A stretch of 64,000 nucleotides of DNA. It comes from Escherichia phage BYEP01. The notes beneath the pieces were generated by a model. That model worked only from the letters and a program-made list of their open reading frames with translations. It had not been told where the DNA came from and searched no databases. A program made the position numbers and the translations under genes. This document shows, piece by piece, positions 11,589-31,790 of this stretch; within the stretch, counting starts at the first letter, position 1; every line of letters begins with the position of its first letter. The stretch is from sequence record OR757453.1. One strand, written 5' to 3'.

Positions 11589-11876
11589 ATGTGTACAAAC
11601 ACCAAGGATGGTGTTATTATAGACTTATCAAAACAAATACAGAAACGGAGAAATAAATGACTACTTTAATTATTTGGTTCGACGAGAATGAAGAAACATA
11701 CTGCGTGAATATTGGTGAAAGCCCAATGCCTGATTTTGAATCTTCAGATAAAAACTCGGTTGTATCTTGGGCTGAAGGCTATAAAGCAGCAAAAGGAGAT
11801 GTTAAAATAGTTTATAAACTCTTTGGAGTATAATACTCCCACGGATTTTAAATCTTAATCAACCTAAGGAAATACT

Positions 11877-12470
11877 ATGAACACACTGAAGAAAATTGTT
11901 GAGTTTATTCGCACTAAACTTGGTTCTGCTATGGCTAAAAATCTATCTGTTGAAGAACAGTATACTGCTGCAGCAGCAAAACTGCTTGATAAAATTAAAG
12001 ACCTAAAAACTGCTTCTGTTAAATCTATTAATGAAGAAAAACGTATTCGTGAACTTGTTATCGAAAAGAATCGACAAGCCGAATCAAAAGAGCGTGAAAT
12101 TCGCAAACTTCTTTCCGAAGGTCAAGATGTAACAATGCATGCTAAGCTCGGTTTACTATATCGTCGAACAGCTGAGCAGTTGACTACTAAAGCTGATGGT
12201 TATGCTGAAATGCGAATTGAAATCGCCAAGAAAGTAGTTGAGTTAGATGATGCTCGTCAAGAACTTGCAGTTAAATTGGAATATATCCGTGAAACTCGTG
12301 CGGCAAATGCCCTTGGAATTAGTACTGCTGATGATGTAGTTGAAATCGCAGCACTGACTAAGGTTGATATTGAAGATACTCTTGCTCGAGTTGAAACCTT
12401 TAACGGTAATATTTCCGGGGTTGAAACTACCTCTGCCGATGTTCAGGAATACATTAATTCTCTGAAATAA
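11877..12470 (+). CDS. hypothetical coiled-coil protein (197 aa)
   Basis: SD AAGGAA; long helical heptad-like sequence. Confidence 0.6.
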
Positions 12471-12474
12471 TGAT

Positions 12475-12492
12475 AAGGGGCTTCGGCCCCTT
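12475..12492 (+). terminator. UUCG-tetraloop hairpin
   Basis: ggggc-ttcg-gcccc. Confidence 0.6.
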
Positions 12493-12511
12493 ATACTTGG
12501 AGTAAATAGGA

Positions 12512-13126
12512 ATGAAAATGAAAATGCAAAGTGATTTCAATTCAATGTTTGAAGAGTTCCAAAGACAAGTTGATGTTCCAGACCAATTACTAAATGCTCT
12601 TAAACGTATGGCAGAAGGACGTAATTACTATTGGGGCTCTTCATATGAAACTGATGAAAGTCTTTCTGGAAGATTTTCTAGAGGTAAAAAGTCTTTAATA
12701 CGCCCTGGAATACTCATTAAAAGTATTGAATCAATTCATTCATTGACATGTGATTTTGATGTTGAATTTACTGATTTCATTTCTCCTGAATGGACAGTTT
12801 GTTATTTAAACGACGATTATGATTATCTTGGCGTTTATAGTTTAAGTGACGCATGGTTTAAGCGTAATTTACAAAAGTCAAATTTATTTTATATTGATAC
12901 TACGGTAAAATTTCAAGGCAAGAAATATTTCTTTACTCTTATAGTTGACTCTGAAACAAAATATGAAAATAAGCGTATTCTTAATAAAAGGAATATCTTG
13001 ACTATTATTGATGATCTTTTTGATAAATTCGTGAAAAATCCTAATTTTGAAAGCGATTTATTACTAGAAAAATTTGTTAAGGAATGTAGAGAATATGTCA
13101 AAGCCATCACTATACCTTCCAAGTAA
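12512..13126 (+). CDS. hypothetical protein (204 aa)
   Basis: ORF after terminator. Confidence 0.55.
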   Translation: MKMKMQSDFNSMFEEFQRQVDVPDQLLNALKRMAEGRNYYWGSSYETDESLSGRFSRGKKSLIRPGILIKSIESIHSLTCDFDVEFTDFISPEWTVCYLNDDYDYLGVYSLSDAWFKRNLQKSNLFYIDTTVKFQGKKYFFTLIVDSETKYENKRILNKRNILTIIDDLFDKFVKNPNFESDLLLEKFVKECREYVKAITIPSK

Positions 13127-13487
13127 ACCTTTGAAGTATGAATTAAAGCGCCAGCTAATTTCTACCGATGTATTAATAGGTCCTGTGACAGCTATATCAT
13201 TTGTAATTCTATTGATTATTGGAATGGTTATAGACGTTATGACTGATATTGAATCTGGTGTAATATTTCTGTCAGTATTAATTCTTCCATTAGTAGTTCC
13301 ATTTTTATTAGTACCTGTAAATTGGGTAGGATACTGGTATCAAGGAAGACATTATCGTAAACGTGTACGCGAATGGAAAGCTCAGTGTAAAAAGATTAAA
13401 AAGGAATATCAGCTTAAACTTGCTGCGTATGAATTTGATGAAATTATGAAATTTGTTAAGGAATCACGATGCAAAAGCCAAAACTAA
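13095..13487 (+). CDS. small membrane protein, paralog 1 of 3
   Basis: Start at MSKPSL (SD AGAGAA); 2 TM helices; C-terminal KESRCKSQN motif shared with next two genes. Confidence 0.55.
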   Translation: MSKPSLYLPSKPLKYELKRQLISTDVLIGPVTAISFVILLIIGMVIDVMTDIESGVIFLSVLILPLVVPFLLVPVNWVGYWYQGRHYRKRVREWKAQCKKIKKEYQLKLAAYEFDEIMKFVKESRCKSQN

Positions 13488-13831
13488 ATAAAGTCAAATA
13501 TTCGCTTCCTGAGTCATTTTTAATTTTTGCTGTGGCGTTGGCTGTAGCTCTTGCTGGTAGTCTTATTGGATTAATGATTGACTGTATTATTTTAAACATC
13601 GATGGCACAGTAATTATAACAGATGTTTGGAGTGAACTTCGTTTTACTATAGCGATTTCATTATTTTCATTCTTTGGTACCATGTTATATTTTCATTATG
13701 ATAATTTTAAAATAAATTGGCAAAGAAAAAAGGATTACAAAATACAATTAAAAGAATATAATAGCTACATGTCTTATATTGAAAATGAATCAATGAAAGA
13801 GTTTGTGAGTGATTGTAGGAAAATCAGATGA
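13469..13831 (+). CDS. small membrane protein, paralog 2 of 3
   Basis: 2 TM helices; C-terminal EFVSDCRKIR. Confidence 0.55.
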   Translation: MQKPKLNKVKYSLPESFLIFAVALAVALAGSLIGLMIDCIILNIDGTVIITDVWSELRFTIAISLFSFFGTMLYFHYDNFKINWQRKKDYKIQLKEYNSYMSYIENESMKEFVSDCRKIR

Positions 13832-14312
13832 TTTTAAAAACTCGCTGGTATGATTTAGATGATGGGGATGATGGCATTCCAGTTGATAGAGTTGACTGGA
13901 ATGGCTGTTCCGAAGATATGAAAAATTTGCTGATTAGGGAGTTTAGAATGGGATATCAACCAGTTAAGCCATCTACCGCAACAGATGATAAATTCGTGTG
14001 TATTCATAATGGTCGCGCTAAATTAACGAACGCTGATTGGTTCACAGATAAAATTATGATTTTGTGGTATATTATTAGTCTTCCTGTGACATCATTCGTA
14101 TTTTACTTTTTTATAAAAAATCCAATGGACAGAATAGGAGATTGGATTCTTTTAACCATACTTGTTAATATTTTTACAGCAGCAATATTATCTGGGATAT
14201 GGTACACGTTCATTGAAATGCCATGGCGGCTACGCAGACAACAAAAGATTTTTGATGAAAAGAAATATACTCAAAATTTAAATAACTTTATCACTGAATG
14301 CAGGAAATTAAA

Positions 14313-14316
<4 letters not shown>
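13828..14316 (+). CDS. membrane protein, paralog 3 of 3
   Basis: 2 TM helices; C-terminal FITECRKLK. Confidence 0.55.
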
Positions 14317-15285
<969 letters not shown>

Positions 15286-15289
15286 AGTT

Positions 15290-15319
15290 GTTTACTTTCT
15301 CTTAGAATTGTGATAGTAT
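15290..15319 (+). promoter_or_regulatory. early promoter of denV
   Basis: gtttac..N18..tagtat. Confidence 0.55.
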
Positions 15320-15344
15320 ATTCACAGTTACTTGGAGGGATAAA

Positions 15345-15761
15345 ATGACTCGTATTAATTTGACTTTAGTATCTGAACTTGCTGATCAACATTTAATCGC
15401 AGAATACCGCGAATTGCCACGCGTTTTTGGTATAGTTCGTAAACATGTGGCAAATGGTAAACGGGTTAAAGATTTTAAAATATCTTCCGAGTTTATTTTA
15501 GGTTCTGGTCATGTTACGTTCTTTTATGATAAGTTAGAATTTTTGCGAAAGCGTCAATCAGACATTATAACGGAATGCTTAAAACGTGGGTTTAGTATAA
15601 AAGATACTGAAGTTCCTGACATCAGCGATATTCCAGCAGAATGGAAAAATGATTATAATCCATGCAAATCAGCTATTAAATTGAGTCAACAACGACTCGA
15701 TGAAAAAATTTTAATGAAGCCACACTGGTATAAATACTACGGTAAAACTATTTACATTTAA
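15345..15761 (+). CDS. denV: endonuclease V, pyrimidine dimer DNA glycosylase (138 aa)
   Basis: [17 protein letters not shown]...WYKYYGK matches remembered T4 endo V; 138 aa. Confidence 0.92.
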
Positions 15762-15772
15762 AGGAAACAAAA

Positions 15773-16087
15773 ATGAAAACATATAAAGAATTTATTGCAG
15801 AATCCGCCAACCAACGCGTTGAAGGTGGTTATATTTGGATTGAACAAGTTGAGCCACCGAGCCGCACTTCTACAGGTAAATGGAAAATTACTGTTGATGG
15901 TCCTGGTGGTAAACGTAGGACTCTTAAAGAAATTAATGGGTACTATGAAGAAGCTCTTTCTGACGCGGGTACTTATATGATGCAAATCATGATTAAAAAC
16001 CCAGAAAATCGTTTTGCGGCTAGAGTTTTCCGCCGTATTGGAAATAAGCTTTATGATGCATATTCTAAAAACTTCCCTAAAGAATAA
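15773..16087 (+). CDS. internal head protein with capsid targeting sequence (IPII/IPIII-like)
   Basis: N-terminus MKTYKEFIAE. Confidence 0.7.
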   Translation: MKTYKEFIAESANQRVEGGYIWIEQVEPPSRTSTGKWKITVDGPGGKRRTLKEINGYYEEALSDAGTYMMQIMIKNPENRFAARVFRRIGNKLYDAYSKNFPKE

Positions 16088-16105
16088 AAATTAAAGGATA
16101 CACAC

Positions 16106-16408
16106 ATGAAAACATGTCAAGAATTTATTACTGAAGCGCGAGTGAGTGCAGGTAAATTAGAAGCCGCTATAAATAAAAAGGCCCATTCATTTCATGATTT
16201 GTCCGATAAAGACCGTAAGAAACTTGTAAGCCTTTATATTGACAAAGAGCGTATTCTCGCTCTTCCTGGTGCTAATGAAGGTAAACAGGCCAAGCCTTTG
16301 AATGCTGTCGAAAAGAAAATTGATAACTTTGCTTCTAAATTCGGTATGTCTATGGATGACCTTCAGCAAGCGGCTATCGAAGCAGCTAAAGTAATTAAAG
16401 GTAAATAA
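16106..16408 (+). CDS. internal head protein with capsid targeting sequence (IPII/IPIII-like)
   Basis: N-terminus MKTCQEFITEA. Confidence 0.7.
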   Translation: MKTCQEFITEARVSAGKLEAAINKKAHSFHDLSDKDRKKLVSLYIDKERILALPGANEGKQAKPLNAVEKKIDNFASKFGMSMDDLQQAAIEAAKVIKGK

Positions 16409-16410
16409 CA

Positions 16411-16440
16411 GTTTACTTTCTCCTAAAATTGTGATAGTAT
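16411..16440 (+). promoter_or_regulatory. early promoter, near-duplicate of denV promoter
   Basis: gtttactttctcctaaaattgtgatagtat vs 15290-15319. Confidence 0.5.
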
Positions 16441-16465
16441 ATTCATAATTACTTGGAGAGGTAAA

Positions 16466-16529
16466 ATGACTCGATGAAAAAATTTTAACGAAGCCACACT
16501 GGTATAAGTATTACGGCAAAAATATTTAC
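16466..16529 (+). pseudogene. denV remnant: start codon + 2 codons fused to last ~55 nt of a second denV copy
   Basis: atgactcg then atgaaaaaattttaacgaagccacactggtataag..., aligning to denV 15345-15352 and 15701-15760; deletion junction at repeat GACTCG; reads M-T-R-stop. Confidence 0.7.
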
Positions 16530-16680
16530 ATTCAAATAACATGGGAACAAGCTGGACCTCATGATTCTGTGAGGGATTCCCGCCAACCTGTAATAAGGTC
16601 GAGCCCAAGTGCGGTAATGGGTAAATACAGAAATGGACGATTCATGCGCCATGGAATGGCCCAAATTTAGAGAGAATAAA

Positions 16681-17220
16681 ATGAGAACATTTTTAACTGG
16701 TCCTTATCTATCCCTGATGAATGCTTTTACACACCATTCTGATGCTAGAGTAGAAGAAATTTGTAAAAACGATTATATCCCACCATTTGAAGACTTACTC
16801 AAACAGTATTGCACACTTCGACTAGATGGTGGACGTCAATCCGGTAAATCAACTGCTGCGACCAATTTTGCTGCTAATTGGTTGTATGACGGTGGAACAG
16901 TTATTGTTCTTTCTAATACTTCAGCTTACGCTAAAATTTCTGCAGGCCACATTAAAAAAGAATTTTCTCGTTATTCTAGCGATGATATTCGATTCCGTTT
17001 ATTTACTGATTCTGTCCGTAGTTTTGTTGGTAATAGAGGTAGCAAGTTCAGAGGTTTATCGCTTTCTCGAATTTTGTATATAATCGATGAGCCTGTTAAA
17101 TCTCCTGATATGGATAAAATTTACGATATTCATATTGAAACTGTGCAACACTGCTGCAATAGTAAATTCTGCATTGGTGGTATTACTCGTCCACAGTTTT
17201 TCATAATCGGAATGCAATGA
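16681..17220 (+). CDS. P-loop NTPase-like hypothetical protein
   Basis: Walker A GGRQSGKST, Walker B-like LYIIDEP; SD upstream of MRTF. Confidence 0.55.
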   Translation: MRTFLTGPYLSLMNAFTHHSDARVEEICKNDYIPPFEDLLKQYCTLRLDGGRQSGKSTAATNFAANWLYDGGTVIVLSNTSAYAKISAGHIKKEFSRYSSDDIRFRLFTDSVRSFVGNRGSKFRGLSLSRILYIIDEPVKSPDMDKIYDIHIETVQHCCNSKFCIGGITRPQFFIIGMQ

Positions 17221-17546
17221 TGACAGACACGCAACTTTTCGAATATCTTTATTTTTCGCCAAAAACTATTAAAAATAAATTGGTGAATCATTTTGAAATT
17301 TTGGCAAATAACAACGTCTTGAGCGAATTTTATCCTAAGCAATACAAATTACAAAAAGGCGTATTCAAAGGATGCAGAGTTTTGTGCACTGCTCCTAATG
17401 CACGGCTAATGAATAAAATTCCATATTTTACCATGGAATTTATTGATGGGCCTTTTAAAGGACTAATCACACAGAGTTTAATGGCATATGATTCTGAGCC
17501 ATTTTTAATTAAAGAACAATCTTGGATAAATTTATTTTCTAATTGA
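17217..17546 (+). CDS. hypothetical protein (109 aa)
   Basis: ATGA overlap with upstream gene. Confidence 0.5.
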
Positions 17547-17554
17547 GAGGTTAT

Positions 17555-17917
17555 ATGAAAGCATATCAAATTCTTGAAGGCACACATAAAGGTACTATTT
17601 ATTTTGAAGATGGTATTCAAGCACGAATTATTGTATCTAAAACCTTTAAAGAGGACTCTTTTGTAGACCCAGAAATTTTCTATGGTTTGCATGCCCGTGA
17701 AATTGAAATTGAGCAACAGCCTACAGTTAAAATTGAAGGTGGTCAACACCTGAACGTTAACGTTCTGCGTCGCGAAACTCTGGAAGATGCAGTTAAGCAT
17801 CCGGAAAAATATCCGCAGCTGACCATCCGTGTATCCGGTTATGCAGTTCGCTTTAACTCTCTGACTCCGGAACAGCAGCGCGACGTTATCGCTCGTACCT
17901 TTACCGAGAGTTTGTAA
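17555..17917 (+). CDS. autonomous glycyl radical cofactor (GrcA/YfiD-like)
   Basis: C-terminal ~60 aa identical to remembered E. coli GrcA including RVSGY glycyl radical motif; this half has host-like codon usage. Confidence 0.8.
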
Positions 17918-18138
17918 TGGCAAAGATAATTATTGAAGGTTCTGAAGATGTGCTAAATGCTTTCGCCGAATGGTTTAGTAATTCAGGCGAACAGCAATTT
18001 AATGAAGCGTGGAATATGGGCGATATTGATGGAATTTATCCCACGACAGAAATTTCTGTTCAGGGATATGGCATTCATGAACCTATTCGTTTAGTTGAAT
18101 ATGATTTATGTACTGGTGAGGAAGTCAAATATGATTGA
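17917..18138 (+). CDS. hypothetical protein (73 aa)
   Basis: ORF. Confidence 0.5.
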   Translation: MAKIIIEGSEDVLNAFAEWFSNSGEQQFNEAWNMGDIDGIYPTTEISVQGYGIHEPIRLVEYDLCTGEEVKYD

Positions 18139-18397
18139 AGATATTAAGGGTTATAAGCCGCACACTGAAGAGAAAATCGGTAAAGTGAATGCTATCAAAG
18201 ACGCTGAAGTTCGTTTAGGACTTATCTTTGATGCTTTATACGATGAATTTTGGGAAGCACTAGATAATTGTGAAGACTGTGAATTCGCGAAGAATTATGC
18301 TGAAAGCCTCGATCAGTTAACTATTGCTAAAACGAAACTCAAAGAAGCCAGTATGTGGGCTTGTCGTGCTGTGTTCCAACCAGAGGAAAAATATTAA
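18131..18397 (+). CDS. hypothetical protein (88 aa) in the vs.4-equivalent position
   Basis: Position only; in T4 vs.4 is the Acb2 cyclic-oligonucleotide sponge, not verifiable here. Confidence 0.45.
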
Positions 18398-18675
18398 TGG
18401 CTCAATTAAGCGCAGGGTTTGGTTATGAGTATTATACTGCCCCTCGTCGTGTATCTGTTGCTCCTAAGAAAATTCAAAGTCTTGATGACTTCCAGGAAGT
18501 AGTCCGTAAAGCTTTCCAGGACTATGCACGTTATCTTAAAGAAGATTCGCAGGACTGTCTCGAAGAAGATGAAATTGCTTACTATGAGCAGCGTCTTGAA
18601 CAGCTCAAAAACCTACATGAGGTTCGTGCAGAAGTTTCAAAGTCTATGAATAAATTGATTAGATTTAAAGAATAA
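18397..18675 (+). CDS. hypothetical protein (92 aa)
   Basis: TAATG overlap. Confidence 0.5.
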
Positions 18676-18678
18676 CTT

Positions 18679-18708
18679 GTTTACTTTTCCTCTTGACTGT
18701 GGTATAAT
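18679..18708 (+). promoter_or_regulatory. early promoter
   Basis: gtttac..tgtggtataat. Confidence 0.6.
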
Positions 18709-18735
18709 TTTTCTATCAGTTAAGAGGAGAATAAC

Positions 18736-19197
18736 ATGACTATCAATACAGAAGTTTTTATCCGTCGAAATAAGCTTCGTCGTCACTTTGAGTCGGAGTT
18801 TCGTCAAATTAACAATGAGATTCGTGAGGCATCAAAAGCAGCAGGGGTCTCATCGTTTCATCTAAAATATTCTCAACATCTTCTTGATCGTGCAATTCAA
18901 CGGGAGATTGATGAGACATATGTTTTTGAATTATTCCATAAAATAAAAGACCATGTTTTAGAAGTTAATGAATTCCTGAGTATGCCTCCGCGTCCTGACA
19001 TTGACGAGGATTTTATTGATGGGGTTGAATATCGTCCTGGGCGTTTAGAAATCACTGATGGAAATCTTTGGCTTGGATTTACAGTTTGTAAACCTAATGC
19101 GAAGTTCAAAGACCCGTCACTTCAGTGCAGGATGGCAATTATCAATAGTCGTCGTTTACCGGGAAAGGCTTCTAAAGCAGTAATTAAAACTCAATGA
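18736..19197 (+). CDS. regB: RegB site-specific endoribonuclease (153 aa)
   Basis: Matches remembered T4 RegB over full length. Confidence 0.9.
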   Translation: MTINTEVFIRRNKLRRHFESEFRQINNEIREASKAAGVSSFHLKYSQHLLDRAIQREIDETYVFELFHKIKDHVLEVNEFLSMPPRPDIDEDFIDGVEYRPGRLEITDGNLWLGFTVCKPNAKFKDPSLQCRMAIINSRRLPGKASKAVIKTQ

Positions 19198-19204
19198 GGT
19201 AAGC

Positions 19205-19750
19205 ATGAGAAAAGCACTACTCGCTGGTCTATTGGCCATTTCTATGATGGCACATAGCTCCGAGCATACTTTCAGTAATGTCCAACTCGATAACATGCGT
19301 TACGCGTATCAATTCGGGGAACAATTTTCTAAGGATGGAAAATATAAAACACATAAAAATATCCACAAAAGCGGATTAGGTCATATAATGGCTGCTATTT
19401 TATGGCAAGAAAGCTCTGCCGGAGTTAATTTAAAATCTAAACCAAAGCATCATGCCTATGGAATGTTCCAAAATTATTTGCCGACAATGCGAGCAAGAGT
19501 TAAGGAACTTGGTTATAATATGACCGATGCTGAAATAAAAAGAATGTTGAATAAACGATCCAATTCAGCTTCCTGGGCGTACATTGAACTTTCTTATTGG
19601 TTAAATATACATAAGGGCGATATAAAAAAGGCAATATCCTCTTATAATTCGGGATGGAATGTTAAAGCAGGTTCTAAATATGCTTCTGAAGTCCTAGAAA
19701 AGGCTAACTACCTTAAAAATAATAAACTTTTGGAAATAGTAAATGACTAA
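19205..19750 (+). CDS. secreted protein (Vs.1-like), signal peptide
   Basis: N-terminal signal sequence MRKALLAGLLAISMMAHS. Confidence 0.55.
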   Translation: MRKALLAGLLAISMMAHSSEHTFSNVQLDNMRYAYQFGEQFSKDGKYKTHKNIHKSGLGHIMAAILWQESSAGVNLKSKPKHHAYGMFQNYLPTMRARVKELGYNMTDAEIKRMLNKRSNSASWAYIELSYWLNIHKGDIKKAISSYNSGWNVKAGSKYASEVLEKANYLKNNKLLEIVND

Positions 19751-20090
19751 AATTTTGGTTTTATGTATAGGATTAATTTCATTTTCTGCTTCTGCGTCAG
19801 CAGATACATCATATACTGAAATTAGAGAATATGTAAATCGCACTGCGGCAGATTATTGTGGGAAAAATAAAGCATGCCAAGCTGAATTTGCGCAGAAATT
19901 AATATATGCATATAAAGACGGAGAAAGAGATAAATCAAGCAGATACAAAAACGATACATTATTAAAACGATATGCTAAAAAGTGGAATACTTTAGAATGT
20001 TCAGTTGCGGAGGAGAAAGATAAAGCCGCTTGTCATTCAATGGTTGACCGTTTGGTAGATTCTTATAATCGAGGATTGAGTACTAGATGA
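19743..20090 (+). CDS. vs: Vs, valyl-tRNA synthetase modifier-like (115 aa)
   Basis: 115 aa, position next to regB; N-terminal signal-like segment. Confidence 0.6.
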   Translation: MTKILVLCIGLISFSASASADTSYTEIREYVNRTAADYCGKNKACQAEFAQKLIYAYKDGERDKSSRYKNDTLLKRYAKKWNTLECSVAEEKDKAACHSMVDRLVDSYNRGLSTR

Positions 20091-22917: not shown

Positions 22918-22946
22918 TACAACCATCGGATAAAGAGGAGAACATC

Positions 22947-23135
22947 ATGAAAATTGAAGCACTTAATCAAGAAGGAAATATCTACGTCATCATTAATGGT
23001 GATTTTTTCGTCGACATGGATGAAGTTACTAGTGAAGAACTTGTAGAACTTCTTAAGAAACGTTATAATATGTGTGATGAAGTTGCAACTCACATGGCGT
23101 GTGCAATATTCTCTCTTTCATATGTGGTGGAATAA
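22947..23135 (+). CDS. hypothetical protein (62 aa)
   Basis: SD AGAGGAG. Confidence 0.5.
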
Positions 23136-23338: not shown

Positions 23339-23340
23339 GT

Positions 23341-23535
23341 ATGCTGACATGCGAACAGTTTGAAAAAATCATTAAATTAGTACGTGATGTTGAAATAGAT
23401 TCATATCAATTAGCAATTGAGCATTGTGAAGGATATTCATACGAAGGTATAGCAGCAGCTAAAAGAGATTTGGATAAATCTAAAGCTAAGTTAGTTCAAT
23501 ATCTTGAAATGATTAGGTGGAATAATGAAAACTGA
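23341..23535 (+). CDS. hypothetical protein (64 aa)
   Basis: ORF. Confidence 0.45.
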   Translation: MLTCEQFEKIIKLVRDVEIDSYQLAIEHCEGYSYEGIAAAKRDLDKSKAKLVQYLEMIRWNNEN

Positions 23536-23698
23536 AAAGCAGATGTTTTTAATGAAGCTAATTGAAGAATATGCTAATGCAGTTTCTGACTATGAGTGTT
23601 CTTCTCGTGAAAGGGGTATAGCTTTCGCAAAAGAAGAAATGAAAATCATGGTTGATGCTCACACAAAGCTTCAGAATTTTATTGAAAACGTCATTTAA
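23525..23698 (+). CDS. hypothetical protein (57 aa), not in ORF track
   Basis: Read manually. Confidence 0.35.
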   Translation: MKTEKQMFLMKLIEEYANAVSDYECSSRERGIAFAKEEMKIMVDAHTKLQNFIENVI

Positions 23699-23701
23699 CG
23701 G

Positions 23702-23731
23702 TTTACAAGTTGGCAAGGTTATGGTATAGTA
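23702..23731 (+). promoter_or_regulatory. early promoter
   Basis: gtttac..tatggtatagt. Confidence 0.5.
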
Positions 23732-23865
23732 ATCTTGTCAACTGCTAAGGAGAAGAGAATGAAAATTTTGTTTGTTGTGTATGTGATGATTCAATATAAT
23801 TACCCAATGTTTACTTATAATCTGGTGAACAACATTATTGATATTATTCAAAGGAGTATGTAATT

Positions 23866-24423
23866 GTGAGTGAGTCGAAGAGAATCAATATGAAACGATT
23901 AGTATTAGAAGTTAGTTCACTTTTTGGTGAATTGGCTATAGAAAAAGTAAATAATATGTATCGTTTGACGCAAGAAGACGATATGCTATATTTTACGCCT
24001 AGTGAAATCATTCATTTAACCCAAATTGAAAATCCTTATACTGATAAAATTGTAAGCATTAATGATGAGCATAAAATTCATTTTTATTCTTCATGCCCAG
24101 GATTTAATATTGAAAGCGAGTCAATATGCTTATCAGTTATCCATTGGGATAGTTTTATAGATAAGATTAAATATTTTTATTATTCTAATGAAAGAAAACA
24201 TAGTTTAAAATGGCTCAAAAATTGCAATGCTATTATTACTAACGCTTGCAATCAGAATGATGAAACTGCTTTAAATGTATCAAAATGTTATGAAGAAGGA
24301 GATGTCTTAACTATTCGTCAAATTGACGATTTTCGATCACATATTGTCACATTTACCAAAGACGAAGCTATTGCGTTAAAGACTTATCTTGATTCTGTCA
24401 TTCCAACTATGACTTCAAAGTGA
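23866..24423 (+). CDS. hypothetical protein (185 aa), GTG start
   Basis: SD AAGGAG upstream. Confidence 0.5.
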   Translation: MSESKRINMKRLVLEVSSLFGELAIEKVNNMYRLTQEDDMLYFTPSEIIHLTQIENPYTDKIVSINDEHKIHFYSSCPGFNIESESICLSVIHWDSFIDKIKYFYYSNERKHSLKWLKNCNAIITNACNQNDETALNVSKCYEEGDVLTIRQIDDFRSHIVTFTKDEAIALKTYLDSVIPTMTSK

Positions 24424-24497
24424 GGAAATATGTTTATTTCAAGTGGAACAGACATGTGTTATAAATGCAAAGCAAAATTAAATGAGACGAAGAACCA

Positions 24498-25277
24498 ATG
24501 AATTATACTAAAGTATATAATAATTTAATTAAGAAAGGAAAACTCAGAAAATTAGATAAATCTAAATTAAATTTTTATACGGAAAAGCATCATATTATTC
24601 CATCTTGTATTGGTGGTAATGATGATTCTGATAATTTAGTTTTATTAACAGCTAGAGAGCATTTTATAGCCCATTGGCTTTTAGCTAAAATTCATTATAA
24701 TTCGCCTGGATTAATTTATGCATGGTGGTCATTTTATAATTTTGGAGAAGATTCTTTAGGAAGAAATCTCAAATTAACTTCAAGAGGATATCAGTTAGTT
24801 AGAGAAAAATTTTCAAAAATACATTCTAATACAATGAAAGAAATGTGGAAGTCTAATGAATACAGAGAAAAACGTTCGATAACATTAAGTCTTCCTGAAA
24901 TAAGGGCTAAAATTTCAGAATCCCAGTTAGAAGCACAAAACAAACCGGAAGTTAAAGAAAAAATATCTAAAGGGGTGAAAGCTGCTTTTAAACGACCGGG
25001 AGTTAAAGAAAAACACTCTGCTGCAGTCAAAAAATCTTTGAATAATTTTGAAACTAAAAAGAAACAATCAAATTCATCTAAAATTAGACAAAGAACTGGT
25101 AAACATTGGCAAGACTATGACTTACTTTATAAGTTATGGATTAAATTAAATAGACCTAAACGTGGGTCATTCGGAACTTATATAAGTAAATTAGGATATC
25201 CAAAATCTAATTATCATCGATTGATTGTACAATTTAATGAAGATTATGAAAGGTCTAATAATGAAAACTGTAGTTAA
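24498..25277 (+). CDS. HNH homing endonuclease (MobD-like) with NUMOD repeats
   Basis: EKHHIIPSCIGGNDDSDNLVLLTAREHFIAHW; repeated KPEVKEKISKG / RPGVKEKHSAA. Confidence 0.8.
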   Translation: MNYTKVYNNLIKKGKLRKLDKSKLNFYTEKHHIIPSCIGGNDDSDNLVLLTAREHFIAHWLLAKIHYNSPGLIYAWWSFYNFGEDSLGRNLKLTSRGYQLVREKFSKIHSNTMKEMWKSNEYREKRSITLSLPEIRAKISESQLEAQNKPEVKEKISKGVKAAFKRPGVKEKHSAAVKKSLNNFETKKKQSNSSKIRQRTGKHWQDYDLLYKLWIKLNRPKRGSFGTYISKLGYPKSNYHRLIVQFNEDYERSNNENCS

Positions 25278-26271
25278 GTCTTATTTTGGTAGTCATCTTT
25301 ATGGAACTTCTACTCCAGAATCTGATGTAGATTTTAAAGAAATCTTTGTTCCTCCTGCTCGTGATATTCTTATTGGAAATGTTAAAGAGCATATGAGCAA
25401 AAACACTAACAACACATCATCTAAAAACACTAAAGATGATATTGACCATGAACTATACAGTCTTAAGTATTTCTTTAAATTAGCAGCAGATGGTGAAACC
25501 GTAGCATTGGATATGCTCCACACTCCACCTGAACTAGTAGTTAAATCTGATTTGCCTGATGTATGGAAATTTATCCAAGACAATCGTTCACGGTTTTATA
25601 CAACTAGCATGAAAGCCTATTTAGGATATGTCCGCAAGCAAGCTTCTAAATACGGTGTCAAGGGTTCTCGTTTGGCCGCATTGCGTGATGTATTGAAAGT
25701 AGTTAATCAAATCCCTGAGCAATGGGTTGATTACCAAGAAGATGGTTCTATTAAGCAACGTCGCACTAAAGTTGAAGATATTAAGCATCGTCTTCCAGAG
25801 AACGAATTCTGCGAATGGGTATTCCATAATCATGAGAAAACAGGCCCGCAAACGTTTTACACTGTGTTGGGTCGTAAATATCAGACAACGCTTTCTCTTA
25901 TCGAGCTTAAGCAGTCACTGAACAAATTAGATGCTGAATACGGCGAACGCGCTCGTAAGGCTGAAGCGAATGAGGGCATTGACTGGAAAGCTTTGAGCCA
26001 TGCTTGCCGTGGTGGACTCCAACTATTGGAAATTTACAAAACTGGTGACTTAGTCTATCCACTTCAAGACGCTCCATTTATTCTCGACGTGAAGTTGGGT
26101 AAACATCCATTTAAAACTGTTCAAGAGTTTTTGGAAGATGTGGTCGATCAAGTAGAAGCAGCATCCATTGAAGCTTCTAAGAACGGTATGCAGCAAAAAG
26201 TAGACATGGGTTTCTGGGATGACTTCCTTGAGAGGGTTTATCTTGAAAACCACCGAAGTTATTATAAATGA
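25261..26271 (+). CDS. nucleotidyltransferase-fold protein (pol-beta superfamily NTase)
   Basis: N-terminal GSHLYGTSTPESDVDF (GS..x..[DE]x[DE]) NTase signature. Confidence 0.55.
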   Translation: MKTVVKSYFGSHLYGTSTPESDVDFKEIFVPPARDILIGNVKEHMSKNTNNTSSKNTKDDIDHELYSLKYFFKLAADGETVALDMLHTPPELVVKSDLPDVWKFIQDNRSRFYTTSMKAYLGYVRKQASKYGVKGSRLAALRDVLKVVNQIPEQWVDYQEDGSIKQRRTKVEDIKHRLPENEFCEWVFHNHEKTGPQTFYTVLGRKYQTTLSLIELKQSLNKLDAEYGERARKAEANEGIDWKALSHACRGGLQLLEIYKTGDLVYPLQDAPFILDVKLGKHPFKTVQEFLEDVVDQVEAASIEASKNGMQQKVDMGFWDDFLERVYLENHRSYYK

Positions 26272-26275
26272 TAGG

Positions 26276-26300
26276 GAGCCTTCGGGCTCCCTTTTTTATT
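26276..26300 (+). terminator. UUCG-loop terminator hairpin + T run
   Basis: gggagcc-ttcg-ggctccc-tttttt. Confidence 0.65.
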
Positions 26301-26333
26301 TCAAAATTTTTTCACAAAACTTTGGAGAATAAA

Positions 26334-27302
26334 ATGAAAACTGTAACTATCAATAAGGGTATCTACTTCGGTAAAGAAATATCTGGAACTTTTGAGCTCT
26401 TAGGCGAATGGTTCCCAGATAATGCTCCGGTAGATGCACAAGGAGATGGTAAAGTTTTTGTTGAAATTGACGGTAAACGTCGCGGTGTTTGGGTTTACAA
26501 ATCAGATATTTCATATGATGGTGTAAAAGTTGAAGAAGTTAAAGAATCATATGAAGATATGAAAACCCGCATTAATAAAAGATTTAATGTTATGGGAATG
26601 ATGACGAATGGTATTATTAATGGAAATATTCGTTCATTAATTATCTCTGGCGCAGCAGGTATTGGTAAAACGTATTCTTTAGATAAAGCTTTAAATAAAG
26701 CAAATGATAATGGATACATTGAATATAAAAGCATTAATGGTAAAATCTCTGGTATTGGTCTTTATGAACAGCTTTGGAATAATCGTGAAGAGAATTCTGT
26801 GCTTTTGATTGATGATGTGGATGTTTTCTCTGATATGGACATTCTTAATCTTCTGAAAGCTGCTCTGGACACTGGAGAGACCCGTAAAGTTTGCTGGAGC
26901 ACTGCATCTTCTTACTTAGAAGAAAAAGGCATTGACCGTGAGTTTGAATTTAAAGGAACGATTGTTTTTATCACAAACGTTGACATTGACCGCGAATTAG
27001 ACCGTGGTACTAAACTTGCTCCACATTTACAAGCATTAGTGTCCCGCTCAGTTTATTTGGATTTGGGTGTTCATACTAATGAAGAAATTATGGTCAGGGT
27101 TGAAGATGTTATTCTTTCAACTGACATGATGCAAAAGCGCGGTCTTTCTGATGAAGAAACTTATAAAGCATTATCATGGATGAAAGTCAATGTTAACCGT
27201 TTACGTAATGTTTCACTGCGTACTGCACTTTATCTTGCTGACTTTATTATGACCGACAAAAACGGTTGGCAAGAAATCGCTGAGGTTACTCTTCTGAAAT
27301 AA
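26334..27302 (+). CDS. AAA+ / P-loop ATPase (322 aa)
   Basis: Walker A GAAGIGKT, Walker B LLIDDVD; start at MKTV after terminator. Confidence 0.65.
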   Translation: MKTVTINKGIYFGKEISGTFELLGEWFPDNAPVDAQGDGKVFVEIDGKRRGVWVYKSDISYDGVKVEEVKESYEDMKTRINKRFNVMGMMTNGIINGNIRSLIISGAAGIGKTYSLDKALNKANDNGYIEYKSINGKISGIGLYEQLWNNREENSVLLIDDVDVFSDMDILNLLKAALDTGETRKVCWSTASSYLEEKGIDREFEFKGTIVFITNVDIDRELDRGTKLAPHLQALVSRSVYLDLGVHTNEEIMVRVEDVILSTDMMQKRGLSDEETYKALSWMKVNVNRLRNVSLRTALYLADFIMTDKNGWQEIAEVTLLK

Positions 27303-27405
27303 AATTCATAAGAGGCCTTCTAAGACAAAAAGGCAGTTCAGAAATAGATTATATGGACTGCCATTAAAAAGATGACTAGAATTAAACTGGTGAATGGAGG
27401 TAGTG

Positions 27406-27708
27406 ATGTTATACTCAAAGGCTCGTGAAATTTACGAAACTAAAATTAAAGAAGCAGTATTTCAGTTCGCAACGACAATGCGATGGACAAATGACTGGGA
27501 GTATTCAAAAAATCATAAGAAGCCCATGGTGACAAGAAAGGCTCATATGTTAGTGTTAATAGACCGTGAGCAGATTAAAGCCCGAGAAGCCCTCCAGAAT
27601 CATAAAAAGGCTGCCTTTGAATGGTTTATGGATAACACTGCTCCTGAGACTAAGAAAGCAGTGAGCGCATGGTTCAGTGGAAAAAATTGTGAAAGAAGTT
27701 TCTTTTAG
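27406..27708 (+). CDS. hypothetical protein (100 aa)
   Basis: SD GGAGG 5 nt upstream. Confidence 0.5.
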   Translation: MLYSKAREIYETKIKEAVFQFATTMRWTNDWEYSKNHKKPMVTRKAHMLVLIDREQIKAREALQNHKKAAFEWFMDNTAPETKKAVSAWFSGKNCERSFF

Positions 27709-27710
27709 TG

Positions 27711-27740
27711 GTTTACAAGACTGCTCCTCTGTGGTACTAT
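27711..27740 (+). promoter_or_regulatory. early promoter (near-identical copy at 54408)
   Basis: gtttacaagactgctcctctgtggtactat. Confidence 0.55.
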
Positions 27741-27768
27741 ACAACTATCAACTACGGAGGAACAGAAA

Positions 27769-28296
27769 ATGAACGCTAAAGATATTTTCAACTTGGTAAA
27801 TTACAACGATGGTAAATTTAAATCTGAAGCACAAAGCAAGTTCTTTAACGACATCTCAATCGGAGGTGAAATCACGGTTGATGGAGGACAAATTTACAAA
27901 TCCCGTTGGAATTGGATCGTTATTATCGATGAGATTGGTATTGTAGAAATTTACAAAAATACGAATAAAAATCGTACATTACACTGGTCTCGTGATACTA
28001 ACGAACAGTACAAAAAGGATAAAGCATCTAAATTATCTCGTGTAACTCAAGAAGATATTGAGTTCATCAAGAAAGATATTTTAATGTATGATAACTTAAT
28101 TGCTGAAGAGCAAGCTGTTATTGATAAATTTGACGAGATTAAAGCTTCTCGTGAAATTCCTGATTTTATGAAAGAATCAGTAAATGAACGATACACTCTC
28201 ATTTCAGAGCGTATTGAAACTTACAAAAAGCAAAGAGCTGAACGCCAAAATACTCTTCGGAAGTTTGAAGAACGGTTAAAGACGGTACTCGCATAA
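27769..28296 (+). CDS. hypothetical protein (175 aa)
   Basis: ORF after promoter with SD. Confidence 0.55.
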   Translation: MNAKDIFNLVNYNDGKFKSEAQSKFFNDISIGGEITVDGGQIYKSRWNWIVIIDEIGIVEIYKNTNKNRTLHWSRDTNEQYKKDKASKLSRVTQEDIEFIKKDILMYDNLIAEEQAVIDKFDEIKASREIPDFMKESVNERYTLISERIETYKKQRAERQNTLRKFEERLKTVLA

Positions 28297-28351
28297 CCGC
28301 TTTATACCAAGGATGGTATAATGGTTCTAAGCCCTTTTAATTGAGATTATT

Positions 28352-28759
28352 ATGAAACAGTTGATAATTAAAAGATTGAATTTATTGATATGTTGTTTAT
28401 GTATAGCAATTGCATACGGTTATTACGCAATTAATGATTATATGCATTATAAAGATTATGATGTTACTGTAGTTAATACCATTACAGGAACACAAGGAAA
28501 AGGGTCTAGTTTATCGTTTATTGCCGTATATGAACTCAAAGACGGTTATAGATTTAGTGAATATATTTCCCCAGAGATGTATTCTTCAATAGAAAAAGGT
28601 GATAATATTACTGTAAGTTTACGTCCTTTCGACGTAAAACAGACACTGTTTGATAATATTGTTTGGTTCTTTGGGATGGTATTAGTTCAATCCGTGTGTG
28701 GCGCTTATGTAGTCTGTTCAATCATATTCTGTGTATTTAGTAAAATTGAAAATGAGTGA
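28352..28759 (+). CDS. membrane protein (135 aa)
   Basis: N- and C-terminal hydrophobic helices. Confidence 0.5.
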   Translation: MKQLIIKRLNLLICCLCIAIAYGYYAINDYMHYKDYDVTVVNTITGTQGKGSSLSFIAVYELKDGYRFSEYISPEMYSSIEKGDNITVSLRPFDVKQTLFDNIVWFFGMVLVQSVCGAYVVCSIIFCVFSKIENE

Positions 28760-28766
28760 GGAAAAT

Positions 28767-29657
28767 ATGTCAGTAGTAATTAATAATGTCAATGCAGTAA
28801 TTAAATCATTAGTTAATAAAAAAATGATGAATGAATGGACTGTACTTCGTCGTGGAGAGCCAGATAAATTTTTTCATAGATTTAACCCAACTTTGGATTT
28901 GAATGTTATTGACAGAGATGTTCATGCCGAAATTTTAGATAAGTTTAAAGTTGATATTGGATTTGGATTAGAAAAACATTTACAGCGAACAAATGGGTCT
29001 GGAATGAGTTTATCTAATCGCATTATGAAAGCCCTTAATAAAATTGGAGCATTGTCTCGTATTAATGCGAGTGAAATCCTTCGTAATTACAATAAAGGAT
29101 ATGACCTTTATGGTCGACTAATGCCAAAATTATCATTCGACCAAATGATTGCAGATTTGTGGGAAAATCAACGACGATTATTAGCATTGGGCGCTCGATT
29201 AGCTAAAGGTCTAGATAAACAAATGATTTTTAAGACCAATAATACAGAAGACCTTAAATGCTTTAAATTCAGTATTCGCGGAGATGATTATTACATCAGA
29301 GCTCGCTCTACAGATTATGTTAATATGGGGCATCATCTCTGTTTAGCTTTTGAAGTTTTAAAAGAAGCTGGAACATTAGAATATTCATCTGGTGCAAAAT
29401 GCCCTATTGGTTCAAGCTGTATTTTAATTTATCGCCCGAATGAATCCAGTTCAACTACATTGCCTACAAAACCTGTACTAGTTCGTAGTAACGAAAAACA
29501 TTCTGAACAAATTGATTATTTTAATAAACAGATTGAAGAGCTGAATATTTCTATTCAACAATATGACGATGAAATTTTCAGACTATCTGGATTGAGTAGT
29601 AAAGCTAAATCTGAACGTGAAAAGTTAATTAAAATTGTTGATTTACTTAAATCTTAA
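28767..29657 (+). CDS. hypothetical protein, tandem paralog 1 of 4 (C-terminal coiled coil)
   Basis: SD GAGG; shares central helix pattern and C-terminal coiled coil with next three genes. Confidence 0.6.
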   Translation: MSVVINNVNAVIKSLVNKKMMNEWTVLRRGEPDKFFHRFNPTLDLNVIDRDVHAEILDKFKVDIGFGLEKHLQRTNGSGMSLSNRIMKALNKIGALSRINASEILRNYNKGYDLYGRLMPKLSFDQMIADLWENQRRLLALGARLAKGLDKQMIFKTNNTEDLKCFKFSIRGDDYYIRARSTDYVNMGHHLCLAFEVLKEAGTLEYSSGAKCPIGSSCILIYRPNESSSTTLPTKPVLVRSNEKHSEQIDYFNKQIEELNISIQQYDDEIFRLSGLSSKAKSEREKLIKIVDLLKS

Positions 29658-29665
29658 GGAACACC

Positions 29666-30679
29666 ATGAAAACTCGTTCTCAAATTGAAGATATGGTTCG
29701 TAATGCCAGTTATACTCGTGATGTTATGACATTTTTGTGCGAAAATAATTTAGACCCTGATAAAGTTAATCGTGATATTCACTTTAAATATATGAATAGC
29801 AGTGAATGGGTGCGTCATTTTAGTAAAGCGGGGTATATTACACAAATGACTGCTCGTGAGCAACTCACCGATTTCTGTAAAACTATTGATTATAAAAATC
29901 CTCTATTTGTTCAAGGCGTTGGTCAAAGTAAGGTCGATTTATCATCTGGATTTTTCAATCCAAATCATTATCGTATTGAATGGAGATTTATTGCTCTATT
30001 CCGTAAACAATTAAAGCAAATTTTGTCGACGGCTAGTCGATTAAAAGGTTCTGACATTAACTTAAAGAACCTGAAATTTGATGGTTATACTCTTCAGATG
30101 GAAGTAAGACCATTAAAAGAAAATAATAGAACTGCACGAATTAGCTTTAAACCTAATACAAAAAATTCTCTTTCAATTTGCGAATGCCTTAAATCGCAGT
30201 TGACAGAAGCATTTAAGTATATGGATGTTGTTGCCGCTGTTCAGTCTAAGATTTTACCTCGTTTATTAGACACAACAACATATGAACTTGATATGATCGT
30301 TTCATTTAAATACGATTTTTTGAGAAAGGATGAAGTCGCGCAAGAGAAAAAGCAAGAAGTGCAAGATAACTTAAATTTAAATTTATCCAATTACTCATCA
30401 AACGATCCTAAATTTTGGATGTATAGTTCAGGTAATAAGGATGCATGGAAATTCAATAAAGTGAATTTTCTTCCTGTTGAAAATCCGAGTCTTAAACCTG
30501 TTGAAAAATGGCATGCAGATGCGATTGAGAATTCTCTTAAAGCAGTAGATGATGAACTGGTTAAAGCAACTAATGAAGTGTTAGAAGTTGAAAAGATGCT
30601 AGAAAAAGCTCAAGAAAAAGTCAAAAATCTTACGAAGCAACGTTCTAAACTGAACAATGCACTAAATGCACTAAACTAG
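29666..30679 (+). CDS. hypothetical protein, tandem paralog 2 of 4
   Basis: 337 aa; C-terminal coiled coil. Confidence 0.6.
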   Translation: MKTRSQIEDMVRNASYTRDVMTFLCENNLDPDKVNRDIHFKYMNSSEWVRHFSKAGYITQMTAREQLTDFCKTIDYKNPLFVQGVGQSKVDLSSGFFNPNHYRIEWRFIALFRKQLKQILSTASRLKGSDINLKNLKFDGYTLQMEVRPLKENNRTARISFKPNTKNSLSICECLKSQLTEAFKYMDVVAAVQSKILPRLLDTTTYELDMIVSFKYDFLRKDEVAQEKKQEVQDNLNLNLSNYSSNDPKFWMYSSGNKDAWKFNKVNFLPVENPSLKPVEKWHADAIENSLKAVDDELVKATNEVLEVEKMLEKAQEKVKNLTKQRSKLNNALNALN

Positions 30680-30708
30680 TTTACTTTGCCACAAGGATGT
30701 GGTATAAT
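30679..30708 (+). promoter_or_regulatory. early promoter
   Basis: gtttac..tgtggtataat; spacer contains ccaca-agga-tgtgg palindrome. Confidence 0.55.
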
Positions 30709-30736
30709 GTTCTTACTTTCTACTGAGGAGATTAAT

Positions 30737-31738
30737 ATGACTCGTAACGAATATATCAAATCATTCAATAGTGTTATTGATGATAAAGTTAAACCTAAGT
30801 CTAGTCAGAATAGTGTTCTTTCCATTATCAATCAATGGCTCAATAATATTGATGTAAGCATTGTTTCTTCCGGCAAATTTATCCATGAAGTTCATAAAAT
30901 TTCTAGTCGCGAAGATAAAGATGATATTAAGGAAACCTTTAAAGGTTCTCGTCTTCTTTCATATTTAGTTAATCAGGATATTCTTGGTAAATTTGGGAAA
31001 GAAATTAAACGAACTAAAGATGTAGTAGGATATAATTGGTTCGGTGATGTTAATTCTTATCATCTTAACATTAAAGAAGACCCTGAGAATATTTTTACTC
31101 GTCGTTGGATTAGTAATTTCAGACTTTTCAAAAAGCAAATTCTAAAATCAGCTTCTAAATTATGCTATGGCGGTTATCGTCAAATTCATCCTTGGGCTTC
31201 TGATATGATTATCATAAAAGAATATGAACTTGATAAAAATAAAGCAGCTATTTTTGTGAATTATGGATTTTTTACACCAGAAGCTAATCAAAAGAACATT
31301 AATAAATTTTTCTCAATTGCTAGTGATATAACTTGGCAATTAGAGACTGCATTACTTTGTATGGAAACGGTAGAAAATATTCATACTTATCCTTTTAAAA
31401 ATACGTGCGGTTGGGAAGGATACAAAATTGTAGTTAGTCTTCGTGAAGTAAAATGCGCGTACTCACCGACTAATAAAGAAATTTATCAACAAAAATGTGA
31501 GGAAATTGTGAATACTCCTAAAGAAGAAACTACCCTTGAGGAACTAATGGATAATCTTGATGATTCACCTGAATCGGTAGAAATTCGTCCAGAAGTTATT
31601 GCACTAGAAAAAGCTTATAAAGAAGTTCTAGAAATTTCTAATAAAGCGCAGAAAGAATATGAGAAGGCTAAAAGGATTTGGGAAGAATCTGTTAATCGCC
31701 TTGATCGTTTGGAACAAGCTTTACAGTTAATTAAGTAA
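30737..31738 (+). CDS. hypothetical protein, tandem paralog 3 of 4
   Basis: Start at MTRNEY after promoter, SD GAGGAG. Confidence 0.6.
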   Translation: MTRNEYIKSFNSVIDDKVKPKSSQNSVLSIINQWLNNIDVSIVSSGKFIHEVHKISSREDKDDIKETFKGSRLLSYLVNQDILGKFGKEIKRTKDVVGYNWFGDVNSYHLNIKEDPENIFTRRWISNFRLFKKQILKSASKLCYGGYRQIHPWASDMIIIKEYELDKNKAAIFVNYGFFTPEANQKNINKFFSIASDITWQLETALLCMETVENIHTYPFKNTCGWEGYKIVVSLREVKCAYSPTNKEIYQQKCEEIVNTPKEETTLEELMDNLDDSPESVEIRPEVIALEKAYKEVLEISNKAQKEYEKAKRIWEESVNRLDRLEQALQLIK

Positions 31739-31790
31739 TTTAAAGCCAAGGATGGCTCGGAGTATAAATCATTAACAAAGTGAGAAGAAC

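Follow-up and report, generated by a model that had tools for sequence, protein, structure and literature searches.

Promoter-embedded stem-loops of T4-type phages (PeSLs, for promoter-early stem-loops) lie most often between the -35 and -10 elements of a promoter or over its -10 box (Arbiol et al. 2010, PMC2839356), and the class was later extended to the PST/T4 pair and to Mot-box promoters, where its members are called PmSLs, for promoter-middle stem-loops (Comeau et al. 2014, PMC4122927). Published accounts give these stem-loops two roles, that of an attenuator and that of a crossover point, and in one case the crossover was mapped to the interior of a loop (PMC2839356; PMC4122927); the stem-loops of promoter cassettes have so far been viewed mainly in these two roles. 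Could some of them also carry a signal that is read as RNA? Here we describe four hairpins with the loop AAGGAT in a 64,000-nucleotide stretch of Escherichia phage BYEP01 (record OR757453.1), hereafter the window. The element appears to be a hairpin of 4-7 bp, closed by a C:G pair and exposing a hexaloop A-N-G-G-A-N (here AAGGAU), that is built into the spacer of a promoter. An invariant loop on covarying stems shows a hairpin that, judging from the alignment, is maintained by selection, and on balance we favour, guardedly, a selected RNA-level element that would be read through its loop.

By BLAST the window belongs to Tequatrovirus, with 90-96% identity to many T4-like coliphages, and its mapping to T4 (reference NC_000866) identifies the + strand as the early-gene strand. 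The T4-equivalent position of site 1 is downstream of e.8; those of sites 2, 3 and 4 are the nrdC.8/nrdC.7, nrdC.5/nrdC.4 and nrdC.4/nrdC.3 junctions. In the following list of hairpins and promoters, class A denotes the promoters upstream of the nrdC.3-.6 paralogs; the cassette of site 3 is referred to below as class B.

11598..11615, + strand: site 1 hairpin, AACACC-AAGGAT-GGTGTT, 6 bp stem with hexaloop
11592..11620, + strand: predicted early-type promoter of site 1 (promoter scan), -35 TGTACA/GTGTAC, 17 nt spacer, TG-n-TATTAT
28303..28320, + strand: site 2 hairpin, TATACC-AAGGAT-GGTATA, 7 bp perfect stem, 3' arm overlapping the -10 box
28299..28322, + strand: MotA-dependent middle promoter PnrdC.7 of site 2, identical in sequence to T4
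30687..30704, + strand: site 3 hairpin, (TG)CCAC-AAGGAT-GTGG(TA), perfect core at 30689-30702 with a G.U pair outside it
30679..30708, + strand: canonical T4 early promoter of site 3, GTTTAC-N18-TGG-TATAAT, upstream of nrdC.4 (promoter scan)
31744..31757, + strand: site 4 hairpin, AGCC-AAGGAT-GGCT, 4 bp stem
31739..31768, + strand: degenerate class A early-type promoter of site 4, upstream of nrdC.3, consisting of TTTAAA, hairpin, CGGAG, TATAAA

All four hairpins are intergenic, on the + strand and inside a promoter spacer, between the -35 or MotA box and the -10 box. A sequence-only reading of this DNA had reported four intergenic inverted repeats around AAGGA(T) near promoters. All four are present in the sequence between genes, at the coordinates reported for sites 1, 2 and 4; site 3, which had been placed at 30693-30706, lies at 30689-30702, a shift of 4. 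The association with promoters likewise stands, with the correction that every copy is inside the spacer rather than near the promoter, as had been recognised for the early promoter of site 3. Two points go beyond that reading: promoter-embedded hairpins are an already described class, the PeSLs, and each of the four hairpins is upstream of the point at which the promoter around it starts transcription.

The promoters differ in kind and in quality. The site 1 promoter matches the position of the T4 early promoter after e.8 (GTTTAC...TATTAT), which holds another inverted repeat, and the site 1 hairpin appears in the predicted lowest-energy fold of its intergenic RNA. Taking as the definition of a MotA middle promoter the box (a/t)(a/t)TGCTTtA, a distance of 12 +/- 1 bp to a good -10 box and a mapped start, site 2 is MotA-dependent: the MotA box cGCTTTA (GCTTTA at 28299-28304) is followed after 12 bp by TATAAT at 28317-28322. 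In T4 the mapped start of PnrdC.7 is 53325 (PMC2988021 Table 1), 7 nt past the -10 box; in the window it is predicted at about 28329, downstream of the hairpin. At site 3 the perfect stem around AAGGAT measures 4 bp, and the repeat can also be read as ccaca-AGGA-tgtgg. Site 4 was missed by the promoter scan and carries no promoter annotation in the GenBank record of phage Lutter, which annotates promoters at sites 2 and 3; its promoter was called from a by-eye alignment with GTTTA-CAACC-AAGGAT-GGTTG-GAG-TATAAT of other genera, and is probably a weak early-type promoter.

How does this arrangement compare with the PeSL class? At each site an early or Mot promoter occupies the gap that separates a stop codon from the Shine-Dalgarno sequence and ATG of the following gene, site 4 being a degenerate match only. 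All four hairpins have the placement of PeSL or PmSL stem-loops, that of site 2 overlapping the -10 box. Signs of mobility are present as well, namely repeated copies, non-orthologous positions (the cef, sp and gene-43 junctions) and an edge of a gene-module swap at site 1. The four sites fit the structural definition of PeSL/PmSL cassettes.

Is the recurrence of one loop in the window more than chance? AAGGAT is flanked by a stem of at least 4 bp at 4 of its 30 occurrences on the + strand and at none of 16 on the - strand, and three or more such hairpins were seen in 0 of 200 dinucleotide shuffles. As AAGGAT had been chosen post hoc, the best loop of any sequence was taken from each shuffle as a look-elsewhere correction. 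The binomial p of 4.4e-5 was then reached by 6 of 150 shuffles over the best 6-mer loop; because the loop was picked after the fact and these shuffles did as well, the window alone is only marginal evidence for recurrence (P about 0.04). Across the window and the whole T4 genome, stem lengths at the 8-mers CANGGANG are bimodal: either 1-2 bp, or 4-7 bp at these sites only. T4 itself has 4 such hairpins among 40 CANGGANG sites, all on the early strand and in promoter spacers, with no intermediate stem lengths; one of its copies is at the 60/rIIA.1 junction. A search of T4 for other hairpins with ANGGAN loops returned scattered coding-region matches only, without C:G closure.

What is decisive for the hairpin, as far as aligned sequences can tell, is the comparison across genera, and not its recurrence in the window. 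Within Tequatrovirus (five IMG/VR loci and T4) the intergenic regions are invariant and give no covariation information. The hairpin is retained, with compensatory stem changes, in Mosig-, Dhaka-, Gapriver-, Jiaoda-, Winkler- and Karamvirus, which makes seven genera including Tequatrovirus. The site 2 ortholog, TATACC-AAGGAT-GGTATA, is identical in T4, Dhakavirus and Gaprivervirus; it reads ACCC-AAGGAC-GGGT in Mosigvirus (ACC/GGT to CCC/GGG) and TTGTATC-AAGGAT-GATATAA in contig L115 (ACC/GGT to ATC/GAT), each a double compensated change. Among the class A promoters, that of Mosigvirus is the GTTTA-CAACC-AAGGAT-GGTTG-GAG-TATAAT cassette already mentioned, Dhakavirus has CATCC/GGATG arms around AAGGAC or AAGGAT, Gaprivervirus has CTTCC/GGAGG arms, and T4 has AGCC/GGCT, which equals site 4.

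We aligned 24 distinct family members over five stem pairs and compared them with 500 shuffles and with slid-register controls. The five pairs are 93.3% paired against 59.7% in shuffles, and the covariation score is 0.81 against 0.19, neither value being reached by any of the 500 shuffles, while slid registers score 0.04-0.19; these figures are inflated by the shared ancestry of the members and by the choice of some distant ones already known to have stems. Stem pair 3 occurs as UA (9), AU (8), CG (4) and GC (3), and is never unpaired. The statement that the stems differ and nevertheless stay complementary is thus borne out, and so is the view that chance is not the source, which the window supports marginally and the compensated conservation across related genera supports strongly. 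The IMG/VR patterns demanded a nearby TATAAT. In T4-like contigs, CCAAGGAYGG...TATAAT had a stem of at least 4 bp at 9 of 20 distinct sites, where 1.3-1.8 were expected.

The loop behaves differently from the stems. None of the 24 aligned members departs from C-A-A-G-G-A, and the sixth position of the loop holds U or C; 23 of the 24 read CAAGGAYG, and later finds read CACGGATG and CATGGAAG. Aeromonas phage PS49 has the loop ACGGAT in an otherwise identical cassette, and a second Karamvirus early promoter holds ACGCAC-ATGGAA-GTGTGT in its spacer. Since these variants change at N positions only, the truly conserved core is, on the present alignment, C-A-N-G-G-A-N-G. Across 26 members the base after GGA is 20 times U, 5 times C, once A and never G.

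Class B illustrates the movement of the element. A near-duplicate of the site 3 cassette lies upstream of T4 rIIA.1, and the cassette is found in 707 phage records, typically at about two places per genome. Klebsiella Jiaodavirus has it at motB/cef, Erwinia Winklervirus at 41/sp and Karamvirus after gene 43, so that five different junctions are occupied across genera. These placements show, at the level of sequence comparison, a hairpin that travels with its promoter cassette to non-orthologous junctions. Identical loops also stand upstream of nrdC.3 and nrdC.4, whose products are distant paralogs (25% amino-acid identity over 226 residues, E = 1e-6); if the promoters were duplicated together with these genes, nothing but selection could have preserved the identity of the loops through such divergence.

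The same hairpin was seen outside this group of phages. Some uncultured phage contigs unrelated to T4 carry it with 6-7 bp stems and apparent TTGACA-N17-TATAAT promoters (for example TTGACAAATCGCCAAGGATGGCGATATAAT), with four cases of at least 6 bp where 0.3-0.7 were expected:

contig L041, position 8299, - strand: hairpin in a T4-unrelated contig
contig L088, position 1138: hairpin in a T4-unrelated contig
contigs L015, position 9620, and L090, position 3728: hairpin in T4-unrelated contigs

L041 and L088 have no relatives in the phage collection and were kept out of the covariation analysis.

What, then, would be selected, and what would read it? The stems covary and the arms hold no conserved sequence, which argues that the selected object is a folded single strand and not a duplex site for a dimer. 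Of the two structured elements that the sequence-only reading had offered, the RNA hairpin gains from the covariation, and the dimeric DNA-binding site was rejected: there are no conserved half-sites in the arms, and the conserved centre is asymmetric. That the loop stays constant while the stems drift suggests that something reads the loop. Because the hairpin lies upstream of its own start, its RNA form would be confined to read-through transcripts from promoters further upstream, and transcripts from the embedded promoter would lack it. A factor specific for GGA loops would bind the exposed loop on read-through RNA and modulate the downstream cistron.

The candidate reader that fits best would be host CsrA. 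SELEX gave the CsrA consensus RUACARGGAUGU, with GGA in a hairpin loop (PMC4347634), and the structural consensus for CsrA/RsmA is A/U-CANGGANG-U/A (PMC6849547). Site 3, ACAAGGAUGU, matches the former at 10 of 12 positions, ACARGGAUGU being exact, and every copy places GGA in a hairpin loop within CANGGANG. Variation confined to the two N positions, with position 6 never G, fits CsrA better than RegB or a mimic of the Shine-Dalgarno sequence. A CsrA dimer could span the 25-40 nt from the loop down to a GGA in the Shine-Dalgarno sequence and could thereby make the downstream gene less well translated or its message less stable, on read-through RNA only. By reading, about 15 of 17 leaders have a GGA at that distance, in the Shine-Dalgarno sequence; GGA Shine-Dalgarno sequences are common in T4. 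That CsrA specifically is the reader is possible, and we propose it tentatively from the match to its consensus. Equally tentative is the proposal that CsrA, or some as yet unnamed phage factor for GGA loops, would in this way tell read-through from promoter-proximal transcripts and accordingly determine how the downstream gene is translated or its message decays.

Several observations weigh against an RNA element read through its loop, or against CsrA as its reader. There are about 4 copies per genome, and the inflation of the covariation figures has been noted. Single folds are weak: for the intergenic RNAs the energies range from -8 to -14 kcal/mol and the z-scores from -0.4 to -1.6, and no fold is significant by itself. 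An A occupies the second loop position in 24 of 26 members, which is tighter than CsrA alone needs, and GGA is absent from the Shine-Dalgarno sequences that follow sites 2 and 4, so a two-site CsrA clamp is not general. The IMG/VR Tequatrovirus contig L006 has, at about 5003-5040, a site 4 variant, AAGGATAGCT, in which the closing pair is broken; the -10 box there is also mutated, TACAAA for TATAAA, and this suggests that site 4, the weakest copy, may be decaying in some lineages. The strict association with promoter spacers could reflect a function at the DNA level, and attenuation or recombination as in other PeSLs may coexist with a reader of the loop. Apart from these points, no link between CsrA and T4 mRNA was found in the literature searched, and a covariance-model scan of the window found no Rfam family at gathering score at any of the four sites.

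Could the hairpin be a PeSL in a purely structural or evolutionary sense, which attenuates upstream transcription, marks a recombination hotspot or both, with a loop that persists through descent and cassette copying? We regard this as unlikely to be the full account, even with the attenuator and crossover precedents, including the crossover inside a loop (PMC2839356; PMC4122927), the exact coincidence of site 1 with the edge of a module swap (T4 e.7 to a 58-amino-acid open reading frame), the class B cassette at five junctions in different genera, and a terminator-like appearance of site 3, the only site that a lenient terminator scan picks up. If descent or gene conversion were at work, stems and loop should both have become uniform or both random, whereas the stems have fully diverged and loop and closing pair are invariant, the loops being identical even upstream of paralogs of 25% identity. 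Sites 1, 2 and 4 (tails AUUAUAG, AUGGUUC and CGGAGUA) and the class A copies are not followed by a U-tract, and stems this weak would not suffice for intrinsic termination. An intrinsic (Rho-independent) terminator as such was rejected, the stems being 4-7 bp long, of mixed composition and without consistent U-tracts. The 8-10 bp shared around the loop are too short, alone, for homologous recombination. Quite improbable, in our estimate, is a promoter element at the DNA level, in which RNA polymerase or a phage or host factor (for example one linked to Alt/ModA) would contact a CAAGGAYG duplex and tune strength or timing. All copies do lie within promoter spacers, and T4 early promoters conserve information beyond the -35, TGn and -10 elements (PMC2988021); a reader of duplex DNA, however, needs no complementary flanks, and the flanks covary. 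Moreover, the distance from loop to -10 box varies from 2 to 9 bp and the promoters are of two types, sigma-70 early and MotA middle, which leaves no fixed register with polymerase. Least credible is chance, that is, a coincidence of loops among four short palindromes, favoured by promoter consensus bases (TGG before TATAAT) in their 3' arms. The 3' arms of sites 2 and 3 are indeed partly promoter consensus, and the corrected P for the window alone is the marginal value given above, against which stand compensated conservation across genera, bimodal stem lengths and the 9 of 20 sites with stems in T4-like contigs.

Two further explanations concern the GGA itself. The phage endoribonuclease RegB could cut GG^AU in the loop, or GGAG after the class A hairpin, so that early transcripts reading through would be inactivated or uncoupled. 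Between early genes RegB cuts at GGAG/U and, alone, it cleaves small RNAs if GGA is unpaired and the fourth nucleotide is constrained (PMC3014915); the fold prediction pairs the U that follows GGA with the A that opens the loop. In class A copies the stem is directly followed by GGAG-UAUAAU, a partial match only, and the window has an open reading frame at 18736-19197 that is syntenic with T4 regB and was assigned by position. A RegB target was a reasonable lead in the sequence-only reading; we do not favour it and rate it improbable. RegB prefers GGAG, yet none of the 26 members has G as the fourth base, and GGAC and GGAA are no known RegB sites. Strong sites follow GGAGRAYARAA, single-stranded and A-rich, and the 3' arm of the hairpin is neither; secondary structure generally protects RNA from the enzyme (PMC3014915). 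Measured against RegB/S1 sites (GGAG, rarely GGAU, single-stranded with an A-rich 3' side), the hairpins do not qualify. The literature searched contained no relevant global RegB or start-site maps covering the site junctions. Very improbable, finally, is a mimic of the Shine-Dalgarno sequence, in which AAGGA would recruit 30S subunits as a standby site, or a start at the ATG of AAGGATG or TATAATG. AAGGA is a good core for such a sequence. At site 3 the ATG at 30707 (TATAATG) lies 9 nt after AAGGA and in frame, which would extend NrdC.4 by 10 residues (30707-30736), and at site 2 an ATG 7 nt after AAGGA opens a 7-codon frame ending 5 nt before the nrdC.7 start (28323-28346). These ATGs are not conserved in other genera (AAGGAC variants, TATAATC in Dhakavirus), on which ground the reading by way of mini open reading frames was rejected; ACGGAU and AUGGAA loops would be poorer mimics, and the stronger AAGGAG never occurs.

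Inverted repeats are frequent in other early promoters of these phages. In T4, an inverted repeat of 6 bp or more starts in the spacer of 16 among 23 strong early promoters, against 3.7 expected (200 shuffles, maximum 9). Typically the 5' arm lies in the spacer and the 3' arm just past the -10 box. Examples of such promoters are:

window 18679-18730: early promoter with inverted repeat
window 23702-23745: early promoter with inverted repeat
window 61148-61190: early promoter with inverted repeat
window 63454-63500: early promoter with inverted repeat
T4 65799, 57990, 133331, 129918 and 7215: early promoters with inverted repeats

Some spacers pair with the downstream Shine-Dalgarno sequence, as in TCCTCTT...AAGAGGA (window, about 18689/18723) and in AAGTCCTC...GAGGACTT at T4 136336; such pairing would mask the ribosome-binding site on read-through RNA only. 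The commonest recurrent loop of the window is C(UUCG)G, with 9-10 copies on stems of 4-9 bp and a binomial p of about 1e-16, which we take to be the classic stable UUCG tetraloop of T4 gene ends:

437, 12481, 22863, 26280, 40360, 42727, 43997, 49577, 51524 and 59418, + strand of the window: starts of C(UUCG)G loops

Another AAGGAT hairpin, ATTTTCT-AAGGAT-GGAAAAT, with a 7-bp stem and a U.G closing pair, lies inside the vs.1 coding region at 19324-19343 and is conserved in T4 (62145). It could be due to chance or be a fifth, atypical copy.

Along its + strand the window extends from gene 5 past the tRNA cluster and e.8 as far as the nrdC.11-nrdC region. Its Rfam matches are eight tRNA genes and one group I intron only (9557-10838; 35500-35735); these are ordinary T4 features, and the intron is presumably that of nrdD. 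The site 1 promoter forms the left edge of the module swap relative to T4, where homology ends at about 11620 and restarts at about 11859, some 10 nt before the Shine-Dalgarno sequence of e.6. Between these points the 58-amino-acid open reading frame (11657-11833), which has no Pfam match, takes the place of T4 e.7 and of the promoter downstream of e.7. Its stop codon falls within GGAGTA-TAA-TACTCC, a 6-bp inverted repeat at 11825-11839 that contains GGAGTATAAT, the string found directly after class A hairpins of other genera. Among the genes downstream of the four sites the sole Pfam match is that of NrdC.5 to DUF7235, which is uninformative. NrdC.3, NrdC.4 and NrdC.5 (29666-32720) all have coiled-coil-like C-termini, and this cluster looks like an old tandem array in which each copy has its own promoter cassette.

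If a selected hairpin read through its loop is the correct interpretation, it would constitute an unrecognised layer of post-transcriptional control in T4, and with CsrA as the reader a first direct link of the Csr system to T4 gene expression. It would explain why some promoters place a hairpin in the one stretch that a very compact intergenic region leaves free, where the same DNA would encode a promoter and a regulatory RNA element present on one of two transcript classes. An invariant loop on covarying stems points to a specific reader, and the match to the CsrA consensus makes this a simple, testable hypothesis. Even without a reader, the family is a clean marker for the movement of promoter cassettes between T4-like genomes.

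How do the hairpins stand beside the systems already described? RegB/S1 sites (GG*AGRAYARAA) share with them the GGA motif and a place between early genes, with GGAU as an accepted variant; in the hairpins the loop is never GGAG, the 3' context is paired, and GGAC and GGAA variants occur. CsrA/RsmA hairpins, such as the CsrB/RsmZ repeats and the hcnA leader, likewise present GGA in a C:G-closed penta- or hexaloop; in most of the phage leaders read here a second GGA lies 25-40 nt away, in the Shine-Dalgarno sequence. Unlike known CsrA sites, these putative ones are located in promoter spacers of a lytic phage and would be present on read-through RNA only, and their copies per genome are too few for a sponge. 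With PeSLs and PmSLs they share the layout of stop codon, promoter with stem-loop, Shine-Dalgarno sequence and ATG, the repeats within a genome and the association with module swaps. PeSLs as described are defined by their stems (G-rich/C-rich tracts, or AGNA-loop-TCNT in PST/T4) and lack a conserved loop, whereas here the C-ANGGAN-G loop and closing pair are fixed and the stems vary, being also shorter and weaker than the tested terminator-like stem-loop of RB49. The loop-conserved hairpins are a subfamily of the known PeSL/PmSL class, and one that the PeSL papers do not contain. As in the read-through structures of T4 e, soc, 49 and I-TevI, the promoter is embedded and only upstream transcripts form the structure (PMC3014915); those helices sequester a Shine-Dalgarno sequence or AUG and are associated with late promoters, while the GGA-loop hairpin forms no pairs with the ribosome-binding site and belongs to early and middle promoters.

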